A DNA stretch of 64,000 nt from the NCBI GenBank assembly GCA_049695975.1, contig JBAVTE010000012.1:71665-135664 (forward strand). The letters run 5' to 3'. This document shows positions 36,230 to 59,825 of this stretch, in pieces. The position numbers and the translations under genes are program-made. The first letter of the stretch is position 1, and every line of letters begins with the position of its first letter. Source of the stretch: Minisyncoccia bacterium (GTDB taxonomy: Bacteria > Patescibacteriota > Minisyncoccia > Phycocordibacterales > GWA1-40-21). The notes under the pieces are model-generated. The model saw only the letters and a program-made list of their open reading frames with translations. It ran no database searches and was not told where the DNA came from.

Positions 36230-36300
36230 CGCGGGCGTAGTTTAACGGTAGAACTAGTCCTTGCCAAGGATTGGGTTCGGGTTCGATTCCCGGCGCCCGC
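36230..36300 (+). tRNA. tRNA-Gly (anticodon GCC)
   Basis: Acceptor GCGGGCG/CGCCCGC, anticodon loop TTGCCAA, T-loop TTCGATT. TATAAT at 36211-36216 upstream and a terminator hairpin downstream. Confidence 0.8.
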
Positions 36301-36301
36301 A

Positions 36302-36339
36302 CAATTAGAAAACCTCCCTTTTGGGAGGTTTTCTAATTG
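36302..36339 (+). terminator. rho-independent terminator after tRNA-Gly
   Basis: Hairpin CAATTAGAAAACCTCCC-TTTT-GGGAGGTTTTCTAATTG. Confidence 0.7.
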
Positions 36340-36991
36340 TGCAAAAGAAAATGCAAATTTATTTGCATTCGTCCGGGAATCAAACGGCTGAGTAATGTTT
36401 TTTAAAAAGAAAATATACGAATGAGTTGGTATCCAGACAAAGTTTGTCAGTGAAACTTTAGTCGAGAGAGTTTTTACCACGCTCGCAGTCAACCTAATAC
36501 TGAATTTTCCTAAAAGCCACCAAAAATTAAAAGGACAAATAATAAACATAAGTAAAGGAACTTGCCAATCCCCTGTTTTGGGAAACGCTTATTATATAGA
36601 GCTGCTTTTGTGAAACATGTGGATAACTGTGTGAATATGTTGATTAAAGACAGATTGTGGTTTGTCTAAGAATGTGACGAAATTTTCTGAGTCTTTTACA
36701 AAATATGCCTATAAATATGAGGTATTTCATTAAAGACCCGTCCTAGTAATGTCCTTATTTTGTAGTATTACTTTGTCAATAGGTCGATTATATAAATGAA
36801 GTGTTTCTAAGTAACATTTTATACAAATGTTACACATGAAATGAAATTCGTAATTTTTAGCTAAAAAATATACACAATTCTTTCATTTTAAATATTTTTT
36901 GAATTTTTCATTAATATACTCAAATATTGCGAACATTTGATGTGTTCTTGTGTATTTATGATATTTATATATAATATATTCATTAATTGGG

Positions 36992-38075: not shown

Positions 38076-38888
38076 TTACAAATTCAAATCCAACAAAACA
38101 GGACAGTGATCAGAGCCAAAAATATTATTTAGGATTTCTGCGCGGAAAACTTTTGGTGCGAGGTCAGGGGAGACGAAAAAGTAATCTAGACGCCAGCCGA
38201 TATTGCGATCACGAGCAAAGGTTTTCATATCCCACCAGCTATACTGAACTTTTTGTGGATAAAGTGCACGAAAAGTATCTATCCAACCGTGTGAAATAAG
38301 TTTATCCATCCAATCCCTTTCAATTCGCAAAAATCCGGTGTGATCTTCATTTTCTTTTGGCCTTGCGATATCAATTTCATTGTGCGCTGTATTTACGTCT
38401 CCGCAAAAAATGACTGACTTTCCTTGTTTTTTTAGCTTTTCTATAAATTTCAGGAATTCAGCATAGTATTCAAGTTTGTAGGCAAGTCGGTCTTCTCCAC
38501 CTCCACCATTTGGAAAATAAACATTAATTAAAACCCAGCCATTAAGGGCAGACCTTTTTTCAGATTCAAGGTCTGACCTTGGGGAATTGAAATATGCGAC
38601 GAGTGTGCGCCCTTCTTCATCAAATTTTTTAATTCCTAGACCGTACTCCACTTTTTCAGGTTTCTCTTTTGAATAAATAGCTACTCCGCTGTAACCTTTT
38701 TTTAATTTTGAATGGTCAAAAAATGCGTGGTAGCCGGGAGGAGAGTGAAGCTCTTCTGAAAGTTGTTCGGGATGCGCTTTCGTCTCCTGTAAACAAATAA
38801 TATTCGGATCAAATTCAAAAATCTGATTGAACTTATCCTTTTTTCCGAGGGAGCGTAGACCGTTTACATTCCATGAAATGATTTTCAT
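38076..38888 (-). CDS. xth: exodeoxyribonuclease III / AP endonuclease
   Basis: MKIISWNVNGLRS…CLQETK… and a C-terminal SDHCPV motif; 270 aa. Confidence 0.9.
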   Translation of the reverse strand: MKIISWNVNGLRSLGKKDKFNQIFEFDPNIICLQETKAHPEQLSEELHSPPGYHAFFDHSKLKKGYSGVAIYSKEKPEKVEYGLGIKKFDEEGRTLVAYFNSPRSDLESEKRSALNGWVLINVYFPNGGGGEDRLAYKLEYYAEFLKFIEKLKKQGKSVIFCGDVNTAHNEIDIARPKENEDHTGFLRIERDWMDKLISHGWIDTFRALYPQKVQYSWWDMKTFARDRNIGWRLDYFFVSPDLAPKVFRAEILNNIFGSDHCPVLLDLNL

Positions 38889-38971
38889 GGATAAATAATA
38901 ACATAAAATAATAATAAGAAGATACGCAAGATCACATAAGAAAAGACCATTATGGTAAACGATTCTTTATA

Positions 38972-39304
38972 TTAGGATTTAATTATTGTAAAGAGATTTC
39001 CGATAATTGGTAAAGGTTTCATTTCATTTTTGGAGGCATTCATAATACCAAGTATCATAAACACAAACATGATCAATCCCCAGATATTACTAAGAAAATA
39101 TATATGTAATATATTGGTTAGTATGATAGAACCAGCCAGCCCGATAATGAAAAGAATTGCTCCTTGATTTGTATGATAATTTAAAAATTGCGATCTATTT
39201 TTTACTGCGAGAAGCGGAATAAAGAAAATAATGTAGGCGATTATTGCCATTGTTTTGTCATTATTTGCGGGGGCTTGTTGATTTGTGTTATTTGATTCGT
39301 TCAT
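38972..39304 (-). CDS. small hypothetical membrane protein (110 aa, 3 TM)
   Basis: Hydrophobic helices; no recognisable domain. Confidence 0.35.
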   Translation of the reverse strand: MNESNNTNQQAPANNDKTMAIIAYIIFFIPLLAVKNRSQFLNYHTNQGAILFIIGLAGSIILTNILHIYFLSNIWGLIMFVFMILGIMNASKNEMKPLPIIGNLFTIIKS

Positions 39305-39394
39305 AAAATTTTTGTAAATTAATTAATAAAATAATTACTTCCTATTCTATTTATACAATTATACAACAAATTAGTTTTTATAACAATTTGAACA

Positions 39395-40387
39395 CTATGG
39401 ATTATTATGAAATTTTTTATGCACATCACGTAGGTGTTTGTCGGTGACGTGAGTGTAAATTTGCGTGGTGGCAATGTTGGCGTGACCGAGCATGACTTGT
39501 ACGGAGCGAATGTCTGCACCATTACTGAGGAGGTCGGTAGCAAAGCAGTGTCGGATCACGTGAGGCGTAACTTTTTTTGAAATTCCGGCAATGGTTGCAT
39601 ATCTTTTTACAATTCTTGCAATCGTTCTTTTATCAAGAAATCCATGGGGATTATTTTCATTATTTTTTTGAAATTTAGTTGAATTTTTTGTGCTCGGTGT
39701 TTGTTTTTTTGTAGGATTGACAGAAATTTGGGTAAATAGGGCATCAGACATATCATTCCTGAGGACTAAATAATCTTTTATCGATTTTTTCGCTTCATCG
39801 GAAAGAAAAACCACCCGCACTTTTCCTCCTTTCCCTCGAATGGAAAATTCATCCATTTTTAAGTCCAAATCGTTTGTAAGTGAACAAAGTTCGGAGACAC
39901 GAAGACCTGTGGAAAACAAAAGCTCCAAAATAGCCTTATCACGAGCTCGCCGTTCTGGATTTTCTTCTTGATTTGGTGCATTTAATAGTCTCTTCAATTC
40001 ATCAGGAGATATAGTATCAATTGACCGTTCATTTACTTTTGCAAGCTCGATATTATCGGCTGATAGGGAAGCGATTCCGCGACGAGTTAAAAATTTTAGA
40101 AAAATTCTGAGAGCAATTAAATAAAAATTCTGAGTTTTCTTACTCATTGTTCCGCCGGGAGTAGCGGACTCGCCCAAGAGATGATAACTTTTTGCCCCTG
40201 GCCGACGGTTTAGCCAAATGCGAAATTCCCGCACTTTTTCATTGGTAATATCTTTTGGGTCAGTAATTTTTGTTTGTTCAAAGAAAAGAGTAAGATAGCG
40301 GTCATAGTTTTCTATCGTTTTGAGCGAGCGTCCTTTTTCTATTTCAATATATTCTAGGAATTGTGTTTTGAGTTCTCTGGTGTTCAT
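39395..40387 (-). CDS. xerC: site-specific tyrosine recombinase XerC/XerD family
   Basis: C-terminal catalytic box …HVIRHCFATDLLSNGADIRSVQVMLGHANIATTQIYTHV… and an N-terminal SAM-like core-binding domain. Confidence 0.85.
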   Translation of the reverse strand: MNTRELKTQFLEYIEIEKGRSLKTIENYDRYLTLFFEQTKITDPKDITNEKVREFRIWLNRRPGAKSYHLLGESATPGGTMSKKTQNFYLIALRIFLKFLTRRGIASLSADNIELAKVNERSIDTISPDELKRLLNAPNQEENPERRARDKAILELLFSTGLRVSELCSLTNDLDLKMDEFSIRGKGGKVRVVFLSDEAKKSIKDYLVLRNDMSDALFTQISVNPTKKQTPSTKNSTKFQKNNENNPHGFLDKRTIARIVKRYATIAGISKKVTPHVIRHCFATDLLSNGADIRSVQVMLGHANIATTQIYTHVTDKHLRDVHKKFHNNP

Positions 40388-40473
40388 CTATGTATTATAT
40401 CAAAAAAATATAATATTGTGCGACACCAAAATTAGGGGTTGCGTATTGTCATAAAATATGCTAGACTTTTCTT

Positions 40474-40737
40474 ATGCTTACAAAAATAAAGAAACATAAG
40501 ATTATTAGTGAAGTGGCTATCCATGATACAGACACTGGTTCTCCAGAGGTTCAAATAGCCATGCTTACGAAGAAAATCGAGGAATTGACCAAGCATTTGA
40601 AGAAAAATGCCAAGGACAATCACTCCAGAAAGGGACTTCTTGGAATGGTAGCGGGAAGACACAAACATTTGAAATATTTGGAAAAGAAAAATCCAAAAAG
40701 ATTCAATGCAATTCAGAAGAAAGTTGGACTTAAATAG
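40474..40737 (+). CDS. rpsO: 30S ribosomal protein S15
   Basis: 87 aa with S15 motifs (…DTGSPEVQIAMLT…HLKKNAKDNHSRKGLL…). Terminator hairpin at 40750-40777. Confidence 0.9.
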   Translation: MLTKIKKHKIISEVAIHDTDTGSPEVQIAMLTKKIEELTKHLKKNAKDNHSRKGLLGMVAGRHKHLKYLEKKNPKRFNAIQKKVGLK

Positions 40738-40880
40738 ACAATCAGCAAACTCCGCTCACAAGAGCGGATTTGTTTTTAGTGTTATAATGTAAAAGGTCGA
40801 TCTCATTAGAAACCTCGAAAATTAAAAATTTTCTATTTCTAACGGGATGAAAGTTTTTAATAATTTAATAATATTTTAAT

Positions 40881-41393
40881 ATGTCAGTTATAAAACATAA
40901 AAATCAGAGGGTCGGAATTTTCATAGATACACAGAATTTATATCATTGTGCAAAAAACCTTTACAATGGTGCAAAGGTGAATTTTGGGCAGGTAGTAAAA
41001 GACGCACTTGCGGGCAGGTCGCTTATCCGTGCAGTTGCTTATGTGATTACCACAGAATCAGGTGACGAAAAGAGTTTTTTTGATGCACTTGCTAAAGCAG
41101 GAATAGAGACAAAAACAAAAAATTTACAAATATTTGTCGGGGGTTCTAAGAAAGCCGATTGGGATGTCGGTCTTGCGGTCGACGCAATCAAACTTGCCCC
41201 AAAGTTAGACACAGTGATACTTATTTCTGGAGATGGGGACTTTGTGCCTCTTGTAGAATATCTAAAAACAAATGAAGGTTGCCAAGTAGAGCTTCTTTCT
41301 TTTGGCAAATCAACCTCAGCAAAGCTTATAGAGGCGGTAGATGATTTTATTGATCTTGGAGATAATGCGAGAAAGTATTTAATGAAATATTAG
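40881..41393 (+). CDS. NYN-domain (LabA/DUF88-like) protein
   Basis: VGIFIDTQNLYH…RAVAYV…ILISGDGDF fits the NYN/LabA fold signature. Confidence 0.7.
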   Translation: MSVIKHKNQRVGIFIDTQNLYHCAKNLYNGAKVNFGQVVKDALAGRSLIRAVAYVITTESGDEKSFFDALAKAGIETKTKNLQIFVGGSKKADWDVGLAVDAIKLAPKLDTVILISGDGDFVPLVEYLKTNEGCQVELLSFGKSTSAKLIEAVDDFIDLGDNARKYLMKY

Positions 41394-44931: not shown

Positions 44932-45000
44932 ATAAATAGCGCTTTAATACCTTTTATTTTTTCTTATTTTGTGTTAGATTTACTTTACATCGGGGTATGG

Positions 45001-45071
45001 TGTAACGGTAGCATACGTGCTTTGGGAGCATGCAGTCCGAGTTCAAATCTCGGTACCCCGACAATAATTAC
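45001..45071 (+). tRNA. tRNA-Pro (anticodon TGG)
   Basis: Acceptor CGGGGTA/TACCCCG, anticodon stem CGTGC/GCATG with loop TTTGGGA, T-arm CCGAG-TTCAAAT-CTCGG. Confidence 0.7.
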
Positions 45072-45185
45072 CTTGAGGTAGTTTTGTTCGAGATTTGAAT
45101 GACGGAGCAATATCGAGCCAGCAGGCGAGATTGCGAGTCGGGGTCGCAGAAATTTCCGAACGACGGTGAGAAAATTATCTGTGAC

Positions 45186-45211
45186 CAAATCTCGGTACCC
45201 CGACAATAATT
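45186..45211 (+). repeat. direct repeat of the tRNA-Pro 3' end plus trailer (26 nt), 106 nt downstream of the tRNA
   Basis: CAAATCTCGGTACCCCGACAATAATT at 45054-45079 is repeated exactly at 45186-45211. The 106-nt insert between them contains CGAGATTTGAA, the reverse complement of the tRNA T-arm. Confidence 0.8.
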
Positions 45212-45246
45212 TCAAAATCCCGTATCGCAACACTAATTGTTAATTT

Positions 45247-54459: not shown

Positions 54460-54470
54460 CTTTTTAATCG

Positions 54471-54486
54471 GTGCCCTCAGTAGGAA
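54471..54486. repeat. copy of tRNA-Lys 3'-end segment (GTGCCCTCAGTAGGAA), first of three
   Basis: The same 16-mer occurs at 54797-54812 and at the tRNA-Lys 3' end (54950-54965). Confidence 0.8.
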
Positions 54487-54796
54487 TATCTCTTTCGACT
54501 TTTTTCTCGTCGTCACTCGAAAAAGTCTGGGTACCAGCTCGTCTATTTTTCTTGCTAGAAAAATATGATTCCGCTGTTCGATTCCTACACGCAAGCAAAG
54601 CAGTTTGCTTGCTTTCGGGCCCAAATAGAAAAAGACGCCGAAGCGTCTCTTTTTAAATTTGTGAACCACGACTTTTGCCTTTCGTGAACTCAAGGCAAAG
54701 TCGCAGTCCCCGCCTCCTTCGCTTTGCTCAGTCCGGCCGGCACATTGCAAAAGAAAATCGCCTTTGGATCATTGGCGATTTTCATATATTTGCAAT

Positions 54797-54812
54797 GTGC
54801 CCTCAGTAGGAA
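54797..54812. repeat. copy of tRNA-Lys 3'-end segment, second of three
   Basis: Exact repeat of the 16-mer GTGCCCTCAGTAGGAA. Confidence 0.8.
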
Positions 54813-54832
54813 ATCTTCCATTACATGGACGG

Positions 54833-54896
54833 TACACCTTTTCTGTTTTCTGTTCGTGAAGACACTCCAGAAAACTATCAAAGGTCTTCGATTCCT
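54833..54896. repeat. 64-nt sequence shared with the tRNA-Arg locus (59447-59510)
   Basis: TACACCTTTTCTGTTTTCTGTTCGTGAAGACACTCCAGAAAACTATCAAAGGTCTTCGATTCCT is identical at both loci. It contains a GAAGAC…GTCTTC hairpin and a T-arm-like TTCGATTCC. Confidence 0.85.
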
Positions 54897-54949
54897 AACG
54901 CAAGGTCTCCCAGACCTTGCTCTGAGGGCACTCTTCATTTCATTCATCG

Positions 54950-55022
54950 TGCCCTCAGTAGGAATCGAACCTACGACCAATTGCTTAAAAGGCAACTGCT
55001 CTACCAACTGAGCTATGAGGGC
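54950..55022 (-). tRNA. tRNA-Lys (anticodon TTT)
   Basis: The reverse complement gives acceptor GCCCTCA/TGAGGGC, anticodon stem GTTGC/GCAAT with loop CTTTTAA, and T-arm GTAGG-TTCGATT-CCTAC. Confidence 0.8.
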
Positions 55023-59389: not shown

Positions 59390-59422
59390 GAGAGCTCTTT
59401 TTATAATTGTCCCCCCGCCAGG
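59390..59422. repeat. direct repeat of tRNA-Arg 3' end plus 3' flank (33 nt), 143 nt from the tRNA-proximal copy
   Basis: AGAGCTCTTTTTATAATTGTCCCCCCGCCAGGA occurs at 59390-59422 and again at 59566-59598, the latter overlapping the tRNA 3' end. Confidence 0.85.
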
Positions 59423-59446
59423 ATATCTCTCCCTACGGGAGCTGTA

Positions 59447-59510
59447 CACCTTTTCTGTTTTCTGTTCGTGAAGACACTCCAGAAAACTATCAAAGGTCTT
59501 CGATTCCTGG
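59447..59510. repeat. 64-nt sequence shared with the tRNA-Lys locus (54833-54896)
   Basis: Identical 64-mer; see 54833-54896. Confidence 0.85.
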
Positions 59511-59583
59511 ACGAAACTGCTACCCAGCAGTTTCTCGGTGGGACAAAATAAAAAGGCTCTTGGAAGAGCTCTTTTTATAATTG

Positions 59584-59655
59584 TCCCCCCGCCAGGAATC
59601 GAACCTGGATTTCTTCCTTCGCAGGGAAGTGTCCTATCCATTGAACGACGAGGGG
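59584..59655 (-). tRNA. tRNA-Arg (anticodon reads GCG by hand)
   Basis: The reverse complement gives acceptor CCCCTCG/CGGGGGG with one G-U pair, D-stem GTTC/GGAC, anticodon stem CTTCC/GGAAG with loop CTGCGAA, and T-arm CCAGG-TTCGATT-CCTGG. Confidence 0.65.
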
Positions 59656-59825
59656 AATTTAAAAACTCTAACACATTTTGCTTTAAATTACGAAAAAAAT
59701 GGATTCCCCACAGTGCTTTTCTGCTGAAAAGCATGCAGGGCCCATCTCGCGCCGTCGCGCTCCGATCTTGCACTTGGGTTCCAACCCAAGCTCACGTTTG
59801 CACGGGAATGACAGAGAGAGGAGAT

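Follow-up and report, generated by a model that had tools for sequence, protein, structure and literature searches.

Structured non-coding units adjoining tRNA and tmRNA 3′ ends in Patescibacteria: an apparently undescribed element class with two core types

Genomic islands that enter tRNA and tmRNA genes by means of a tyrosine integrase have a direct repeat of the tRNA 3′ end, a regenerated tRNA gene and a crossover region in the T-loop, and they occur as tandem stacks with defence or toxin-antitoxin genes as cargo. Integrase-less derivatives of such islands exist, for example the CIMEs of Streptococcus. Here we analyse a 64,000-nt stretch from a Minisyncoccia bacterium (assembly GCA_049695975.1, contig JBAVTE010000012.1, positions 71,665 to 135,664 of the forward strand; the whole stretch is called the window), whose tRNA-Lys locus and several other tRNA genes adjoin short, hairpin-bearing units that share these features. 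Like islands, the units come with tRNA 3′ repeats (16, 32 and 26 nt in the window) and are present or absent among relatives; unlike islands, they are about 150 bp long, lack an integrase, contain an inverted copy of the tRNA end together with hairpins, and have a core that is conserved across the superphylum. They apparently form a widespread, structurally conserved and undescribed element class with two core types; the literature that we searched holds no account of such units. We assign a probability of roughly 0.55 to the reading that they are non-autonomous, non-coding cassettes of Patescibacteria, which integrate into tRNA and tmRNA genes at the T-loop or 3′ end.

The tRNA-Lys(UUU) gene lies on the minus strand, and its 3′-terminal 16 nt (54949-54964) are the third of three exact plus-strand copies of GTGCCCTCAGTAGGAA, the other two starting at 54471 and 54797, where shuffling leads one to expect 0.01. 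The sequence GTTCGATTCCTAC at 54576-54588 is the reverse complement, at 13 of 13 positions, of 54958-54970 within the tRNA gene (T-loop and T-stem), and CTGAGGGCAC at 54922-54931 repeats the acceptor 3′ strand in inverted orientation. A block of 65 nt is identical at 54832-54896 and at 59444-59508 (chance expectation 0), and its second copy adjoins the minus-strand gene for tRNA-Arg(GCG), 59583-59655. A first-pass annotation of this DNA had pointed out the three 3′-end copies and the opposite-strand T-arm copy, both of which hold; the block that it saw repeated verbatim near tRNA-Arg is indeed identical, and measures 65 rather than 64 nt. The possibility it raised that the repeats are common low-complexity sequences is not borne out by the shuffled expectations for GTGCCCTCAGTAGGAA and the 65-mer. 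Within 54465-55022 the order is LysA, a terminator, a family-B variant, a palindrome, LysB, a 17-nt spacer and tRNA-Lys, where LysA and LysB are two units of family A (Table 1); the likely order of accretion is LysA, then the B unit, and LysB last.

LysA, LysB and a third unit beside tRNA-Arg (59408-59545), all read on the plus strand, are built to one plan on the strand opposite the tRNA. The unit begins with rcX, the reverse complement of the tRNA's last ~16 nt, followed by ATC and the hairpin P3 with a TAC or TTACA loop; it continues with AGTAC, the long hairpin P4 and CTTC; and it closes with a copy of the tRNA's T-loop and T-stem 3′ strand, the dinucleotide AC, the hairpin P5, a T, and X*, a copy of the acceptor 3′ strand. 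Beyond X* comes a terminator-like palindrome and then the tRNA on the opposite strand, the unit itself being 135-175 nt long. The arms of the Lys and Arg units are unlike each other, and each fits its local tRNA. In the predicted fold rcX pairs with X* to give a branched structure (z -5 to -7, both strands alike); the X* copy matches the facing tRNA, and the hairpin stem, in silico, mimics the target duplex. The first-pass annotation had suggested tRNA-targeting elements and had treated the inverted T-arm pieces as fragments: the accretion of non-autonomous elements stands, and these pieces, like the inverted acceptor pieces, are integral arms of a conserved unit.

The two 32-nt repeats at the Arg locus each comprise the tRNA-Arg 3′ end plus 16 nt of downstream flank and terminator, so the repeat copies gene DNA and not mature tRNA. 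Several familiar explanations were set aside. A tRNA-primed retroelement does not fit, as the CCA complement is missing and the downstream flank is included in the repeats for 16 nt at Arg and 7 nt at Pro; nor does a degenerate duplicate tRNA or a split or permuted one, for ARAGORN and Rfam detect none in the units and neither strand forms a cloverleaf. A self-cleaving ribozyme, hammerhead or other, at the three-way junction has no Rfam match. A MITE, as a derivative of a DDE transposon, would have terminal inverted repeats of its own sequence and a target-site duplication of fixed length; here the arms copy the target tRNA and the direct repeat can be anything from 8 to 41 nt long.

Table 1. 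Units, their parts and adjoining tRNA genes in the window. R1 is a covariance model of family-A units; coordinates are window positions.
Feature	Coordinates	Strand	Evidence or remark
Degraded family-A unit beside tRNA-Gly(GCC) (36231-36302, +)	36348..36414	-	R1 22.9 bits, E 0.002; weak call
Family-B unit beside tRNA-Pro(UGG) (44991-45062, +)	45043..45214	-	repeats and core similarity
tRNA-Pro 26-nt direct repeat CAAATCTCGGTACCCCGACAATAATT	45043-45068, 45189-45214		B core 45072-45186
tRNA-Pro unit inverted T-loop and T-stem TTCAAATCTCG	45099-45109	-	read on the - strand
LysA, divergent family A	54471..54621	+	R1 match 54494-54613, 42.3 bits, E 6e-8; fold z -5.1
LysA 5′ arm, direct-repeat copy 1	54471-54487	+	reverse complement of tRNA-Lys positions 74-58
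LysA core	54488-54575	+	
LysA inverted T-loop and T-stem GTTCGATTCCTAC	54576-54588	+	
LysA AC, P5 hairpin and T	54589-54613	+	
LysA degenerate acceptor arm TTCGGGCC	54614-54621	+	
Bidirectional terminator-like palindrome 3′ of LysA, CAAATAGAAAAAGACGCCGAAGCGTCTCTTTTTAAATTTG	54622..54661	.	sequence and inverted-repeat search
Family-B core variant (...TCCCCGCCTCCTTCGCTTTGCTCAGTCCGGCC) between LysA and LysB	54662..54744	+	by eye vs L064, L128, L154
Palindrome GGCACATTGCAAA ... TTTGCAATGTGCC, inner hairpin 54753-54783	54739..54801	.	13-nt arms, 100% complementary
LysB, family A	54797..54931	+	R1 match 54813-54921, 82.2 bits, E 3.5e-17; fold z -6.8; 65-mer identity
LysB 5′ arm, direct-repeat copy 2	54797-54812	+	
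LysB P3 hairpin	54817-54829	+	TAC loop
LysB 65-nt block: J3/4 GTAC, P4, start of T-loop copy	54832-54896	+	
LysB inverted T-loop and T-stem TTCGATTCCTA	54887-54897	+	AC at 54898-54899
LysB P5; inverted acceptor strand CTGAGGGCAC	54900-54920; 54922-54931	+	
Spacer between LysB and tRNA-Lys, 17 nt	54932..54948	.	read from sequence; without terminator
tRNA-Lys(UUU), direct-repeat copy 3	54949..55022	-	ARAGORN; Rfam tRNA model 78.7 bits
Arg unit, family A	59392..59545	+	R1 match 92.5 bits, E 1.4e-19; fold z -5.8
Arg 32-nt direct repeat GAGCTCTTTTTATAATTGTCCCCCCGCCAGGA	59392-59423	+	includes 5′ arm 59408-59423
Arg core; inverted acceptor strand CGGTGGGACA	59425-59535; 59536-59545	+	
Arg-locus bidirectional terminator; second direct-repeat copy	59546-59581; 59566-59597	-	within 59546..59655
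tRNA-Arg(GCG)	59583-59655	-	ARAGORN; Rfam
Family-B-like core, 5′ side of tRNA-Arg, without partner tRNA	59706..59790	+	by eye vs L106, L005; tentative

A second core, family B, occupies the same frame. It reads GGTCAC(A/G)AG, hairpin, CGCGACCCCGnCTCG, hairpin, GCTCCGnC, and elsewhere it fills the place of the A core between ..GGAATC and TTCGATTCC-nnn-ACG-P5. Fuzzy matching gave 27 occurrences in 22 sources; family B was recognized in this way and by eye, and the model R1 covers family A. The B variant at the tRNA-Lys locus closes with GGCACA, which repeats the last letters of the tRNA-Lys acceptor strand. We had considered GTCGGGGT as an inverted acceptor piece of tRNA-Pro and rejected it, as it is part of the family-B motif CGCGACCCCGnCTCG and stands beside many different tRNAs. 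The remnant at tRNA-Gly has lost P4 and keeps TTTGATTCCCGG, ACG, P5 and a decayed acceptor arm; counting it, four of the window's six tRNA genes have a unit or remnant.

We now turn to the distribution of the units beyond the window. When one genome per species was scanned with an exact pattern, 32 loci matched, 20 of them in Patescibacteria (Saccharibacteria, Paceibacterota, Nomurabacteria, Kaiserbacteria and Parcubacteria), and all 20 have the full architecture; the remaining 12 are chance matches, mostly within coding sequence. A looser pattern found at least 120 loci on metagenome contigs, and the family is therefore not the small one that the first-pass annotation had envisaged. Run over the loci collected by pattern, R1 detected 188 units from 139 sources. 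A convergent tRNA or tmRNA gene lies within 120 nt of 108 of these units, spanning 26 tRNA anticodon types and two tmRNAs, and the others are mostly second or third members of tandem arrays or stand at contig ends. In 46 of the 108 the 5′ arm repeats the tRNA end exactly and in direct orientation over at least 14 nt, and in another 30 over 9-13 nt; the 3′ arm matches the acceptor strand at 8 of 8 positions in 47 and at 7 of 8 in 16. The inner edge of the direct repeat is always in the T-loop and its outer edge is near the tRNA 3′ end. The arms track each tRNA, even where the T-loop is the variant TTCAAAT, and alignments of 21 and of 188 units leave ATC, the TAC loop, AGTAC, TTCGATTCC and ACG...CT as the invariant motifs. 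Compared with this class, an account in terms of serial scars alone understates the finding.

Three observations concern the tRNA genes that adjoin units. A tRNA with a UUA anticodon (tRNA-Stop in ARAGORN) occurs with a family-A unit beside it on each of two Parcubacteria-type contigs (L009, 4187-4260; L126), and may act as a suppressor or point to codon reassignment. In tRNA-Arg(CCU) the T-stem is GTAGG/CCCGC, with an A·C mismatch (L004, 167-239; L026, 7157-7229); the unit repeats this C in both its 5′ arm and its inverted copy, and all three copies are thus kept alike despite a seemingly harmful change. On L038 (2147-2233, +) a P3-AGTAC-P4 segment is joined, in the same orientation, upstream of a tRNA 3′ part with the true T-arm and acceptor strand, a fusion that may have arisen by inversion between inverted T-loop copies.

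The units' helices covary strongly: 94.6% of cells pair, compared with 68.9% in shuffles, two-sided changes occur at 21 of the 21 modelled pairs, and 538 cells carry such changes where 117 are expected. Stable folds and covariation of this strength, together with the conserved joints AGTAC and CTTC, the TAC loop and a terminator-like hairpin 3′ of most units, are what one would see if the units were small structured-RNA genes, in which an A or B core sits in an acceptor/T-arm minihelix scaffold that mimics the neighbouring tRNA and could, for example, serve to bring in RNase P, RNase Z or the enzyme that adds CCA, or to pair with the tRNA 3′ end. On the unit strand the T-loop sequence reads in the sense direction, and the outer stem of family B keeps there an A·C mismatch, which would be a G·U on the tRNA-sense strand; both speak for such an RNA.

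The kinds of pairs argue for another constraint. Unit helices contain 2377 Watson-Crick, 24 G·T and 36 A·C cells, and an alignment-free parse gave 922, 2 and 7 for P3 (44 distinct P3 stems) and 1020, 9 and 17 for P5; in the control, the acceptor and T stems of 152 tRNAs from unit loci, the counts were 1708 Watson-Crick, 98 G·U and 9 A·C. In the helices of the units, then, there is no sign of wobble tolerance or of strand asymmetry. By inspection, no conserved -10/-35 element or fixed-distance promoter lies upstream of 39 aligned 5′ arms. What precedes the arm is in most cases a terminator that belongs to the gene next door, which is what one would predict if the distal repeat were the tRNA's original end in its native surroundings. 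Since G·T is no commoner than A·C, unlike in tRNA stems, and no conserved promoter is seen, the pairing looks like a constraint on DNA, whether as both strands, a cruciform or single-stranded DNA. The RNA-gene explanation is also at odds with the equal folding of both strands; Rfam 15 identifies only the tRNAs of the window at gathering score, with nothing relevant at E values up to 10 or 5 for the window and both loci. It further leaves the cargo genes, the arrays and the repeats that reach into the tRNA's downstream flank unaccounted for, and we consider it improbable.

Pairing that is restricted to Watson-Crick partners would also follow if the units were by-products of template switching in replication, seeded by terminator or T-arm palindromes, as in tandem inversion duplications. 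The succession rcX, X*, rcX is direct-inverted-direct and its junctions lie at palindromes, as such an origin predicts. Template switching, however, could not have placed the same conserved A or B core and P5 alike in hundreds of independent loci, and the core is in fact conserved across phyla; we give this origin almost no credence.

Relatives of the window show units gained, lost and rearranged. The genes around the tRNA-Lys locus are of housekeeping type, and homologues of the neighbouring holA-like protein are labelled Candidatus Paceibacterota. In the related contig L154 the holA-like protein shares 88% identity with that of the window, and the tRNA-Lys gene with 55 nt upstream of it shares ~99%, a similarity that breaks off precisely where the tRNA ends on its 3′ side. 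Beyond this point L154 has only a B unit and terminator, without LysA or LysB, and two extra genes precede holA. Its order of B, palindrome and rcX is found in the window just distal to LysB, which is consistent with LysB having entered the T-loop in an ancestor that resembled L154; the window's palindrome at 54739-54801 joins the family-B end to direct-repeat copy 2 and resembles the terminator 3′ of tRNA-Lys in L154. Two other, near-identical contigs, L072 and L150, differ by one unit of ~170 bp with breakpoints inside TTCGATTCCTAG. The first-pass annotation had proposed both a comparison of the tRNA-Lys locus with relatives and the serial accretion, at the tRNA 3′ end, of small non-autonomous elements that form a family; L154 and the one-unit difference between L072 and L150 agree with it on this.

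Units also form tandem arrays that include identical copies, and some are mosaics. In the window units share P4 at 100% identity, P3 at 73% and P5 at 61%, with other combinations in L110 and L014; such mosaic identity points to module exchange between units, and the 65-mer common to LysB and the Arg unit is an exchange of this kind within one genome. On a more distant contig, L159 (60% identity in the neighbouring protein), the tRNA-Lys gene has a LysA-type unit whose arms fit that lineage's own acceptor stem, GCGCTTA, so some units are old and their arms track the tRNA. The segment with tRNA-Lys and the unit (L159 4968-5260, compared with window 54471-55022) is inverted relative to its holA-like and doxX flanks. 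A short-read contig of the same strain as the window (L001) stops at window position ~54684, within the LysA/B region; repeats may break assemblies.

Variation among relatives, tRNA 3′-end direct repeats downstream of the gene and tmRNA targets are also the marks of ordinary attachment-site scars, left by integrase-encoding islands, plasmids or phages and now decaying, which is the main way in which the first-pass annotation had read the locus. Decay predicts neither the uniform size of the units nor a core that is kept across Patescibacteria classes with compensatory changes, and every unit has the inverted tRNA copy. With their conserved architecture and strong covariation, and with no integrase or remnant of one found in cis and no copy found in viral, phage or plasmid collections, this explanation is largely refuted and very improbable.

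To obtain the observed arrangement, site-specific recombination would insert a unit with its crossover in the T-loop, the old tRNA 3′ end would become the distal repeat, and the insertion would supply a new 3′ end. By our derivation, strand exchange within the rcX of a circular element gives distal rcX, core, X*, terminator or cargo, proximal rcX and tRNA, which is the order observed.

Several points weigh against such cassettes. The occurrence of a LysA-type unit with adapted arms at tRNA-Lys in the distant L159, and the recurrence of the order rpsT-unit-tRNA-Arg at many loci, suggest long residence and co-evolution rather than frequent movement. Among 1775 open reading frames within 4 kb of units there is no recombinase cluster, only housekeeping families (S20, LepA, RuvA), so that the cognate integrase for which the first-pass annotation would have one look does not recur near units; a Phage_integrase domain occurs in just one of 46 cargo-side open reading frames, and a blastp search with the Xer protein of the window gave only two matches near units. 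Neither viral contigs (three pattern scans) nor plasmid and phage records (blastn) yielded a unit, and no excised, circular, plasmid- or phage-borne form was found. The collection of loci by pattern biases the sample towards intact units. A switch to another tRNA type would first yield a chimeric tRNA. Watson-Crick-only pairing could also be obtained by quasipalindrome correction during replication, without a folded substrate, and the conserved A·C of family B hints at an RNA role for the B core.

The same observations can be taken to mean that the units are immobile DNA structures, retained by the host at tRNA 3′ ends. They could be conserved homology anchors or hotspots at which accessory cassettes are swapped through homologous recombination once DNA has been taken up by natural transformation, decoy attachment sites to shield the tRNA genes, or else terminators or insulators. 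Positions kept across divergence (the LysA type at tRNA-Lys; rpsT-tRNA-Arg), arms that co-evolve with the tRNA, module exchange within a genome, the lack of a recombinase in cis, and defence and toxin-antitoxin cargo between unit and tRNA all suit a resident structure. It accounts poorly for units at 26 tRNA anticodon types and tmRNA, for direct repeats that end in the T-loop, and for identical tandem copies and one-unit polymorphisms; a homology anchor, moreover, has no need of covarying hairpins. We regard host-retained structures as an unlikely explanation, and integrative cassettes as the preferred one.

How such cassettes might recombine is a more tentative and speculative matter. Recombination could act on folded DNA, single-stranded or extruded, whose rcX and X* pair to restore a duplex identical to that of the tRNA-gene target; the P5 hairpin would then serve as a mark of asymmetry, while the A or B core would provide for recognition or replication. 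The enzyme may be an Xer-type recombinase that acts in trans, for which one candidate is the host's Xer-type tyrosine recombinase encoded at 39395-40387 (-), by comparison with attC and CTX attP(+). If either strand could be the substrate, this would explain covariation restricted to Watson-Crick pairs. The region 38076-41393 around the Xer gene also encodes an Exo_endo_phos nuclease (38076-38888) and an NYN-domain protein (40881-41393).

Most units have no gene. Where cargo is present, between the unit and its tRNA or between units, it includes an OLD-type ATPase with a TOPRIM domain and a UvrD-like helicase, a Gabija-like pair that in L032 (3285-6042) forms a 3.1-kb islet between the unit and tRNA-Arg(GCG). 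Other cargo comprises a Fic protein (L079), a Gp49-like toxin with an HTH protein (L087), a dCMP/MafB19-type deaminase (L014), an ASCH protein and restriction-modification methylases. Beyond the unit terminator, L015 and L144 have a truncated reverse-complement acceptor (GTGAGCC) and next to it a common sequence, AGATAGAAC.TTTT.ATTCATTGCC, which may be the end of a larger inserted element.

The mobile DNA of Patescibacteria is little known, their genomes being very small with few recognizable mobile elements, and here an abundant class of conserved non-coding elements stands at the variable margin of tRNA and tmRNA genes and encloses cassettes of defence and toxin genes. The units can mislead predictors of tRNA ends and of islands, and because L001 ends inside the locus they probably break short-read assemblies; a covariance model such as R1 would permit their annotation. 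If the folded-substrate mechanism is true, the principle of attC and CTX, a hairpin in the likeness of the target duplex, would extend to tRNA genes, the commonest integration sites in prokaryotes.

Four described systems come close to the units, and the tRNA islands have been compared above. REP and REPIN sequences, mobilized in trans by a single enzyme, the RAYT transposase, are likewise short, non-autonomous, multicopy and long-persisting hairpin DNA with compensatory change. REPINs are dispersed between genes, have a GTAG or CGTC tag and lack target-derived arms; the units are confined to tRNA and tmRNA 3′ ends, and no such tag was seen in their alignments.

Integron attC sites, which the integron integrase recombines in the form of folded single-stranded DNA, resemble the units in being defined by structure, with compensatory changes, and in forming an imperfect palindrome with extra-helical features, and integron cassettes resemble them in forming arrays at one attachment site, with single accessory genes and no recombinase of their own. 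Unlike integron cassettes, the units attach at a tRNA or tmRNA T-loop and not at attI, and their stem is a copy of the target gene. No intI/attI platform was seen, no integron integrase lies near units (among open reading frames within 4 kb and cargo-side open reading frames), and the arrays abut tRNA and tmRNA genes; by inspection, the R'' (RYYYAAC) and R' (GTTRRRY) boxes of attC are not seen in the alignments of 21 and 188 units, whose ends are tRNA-derived.

The attP(+) of CTX-phi and its IMEX relatives is, like the units, an interrupted hairpin stem that mimics the target duplex, and the integrated copies likewise stand in tandem. These elements use the host's XerCD in trans, and for the units a role of Xer is by analogy that of a candidate. 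They differ in that the units target a tRNA or tmRNA T-loop or 3′ end and not dif, are 135-175 nt long, and carry no phage genes and no Rep that we could find. It is a doubtful reading that the units represent a third system of site-specific recombination on folded DNA, after integron attC and CTX/IMEX, whose cassettes enter T-loops through a host Xer recombinase in trans, perhaps on single-stranded DNA taken up by natural transformation; if true, it would give the reduced genomes of Patescibacteria a gene-cassette platform for defence and toxin genes.

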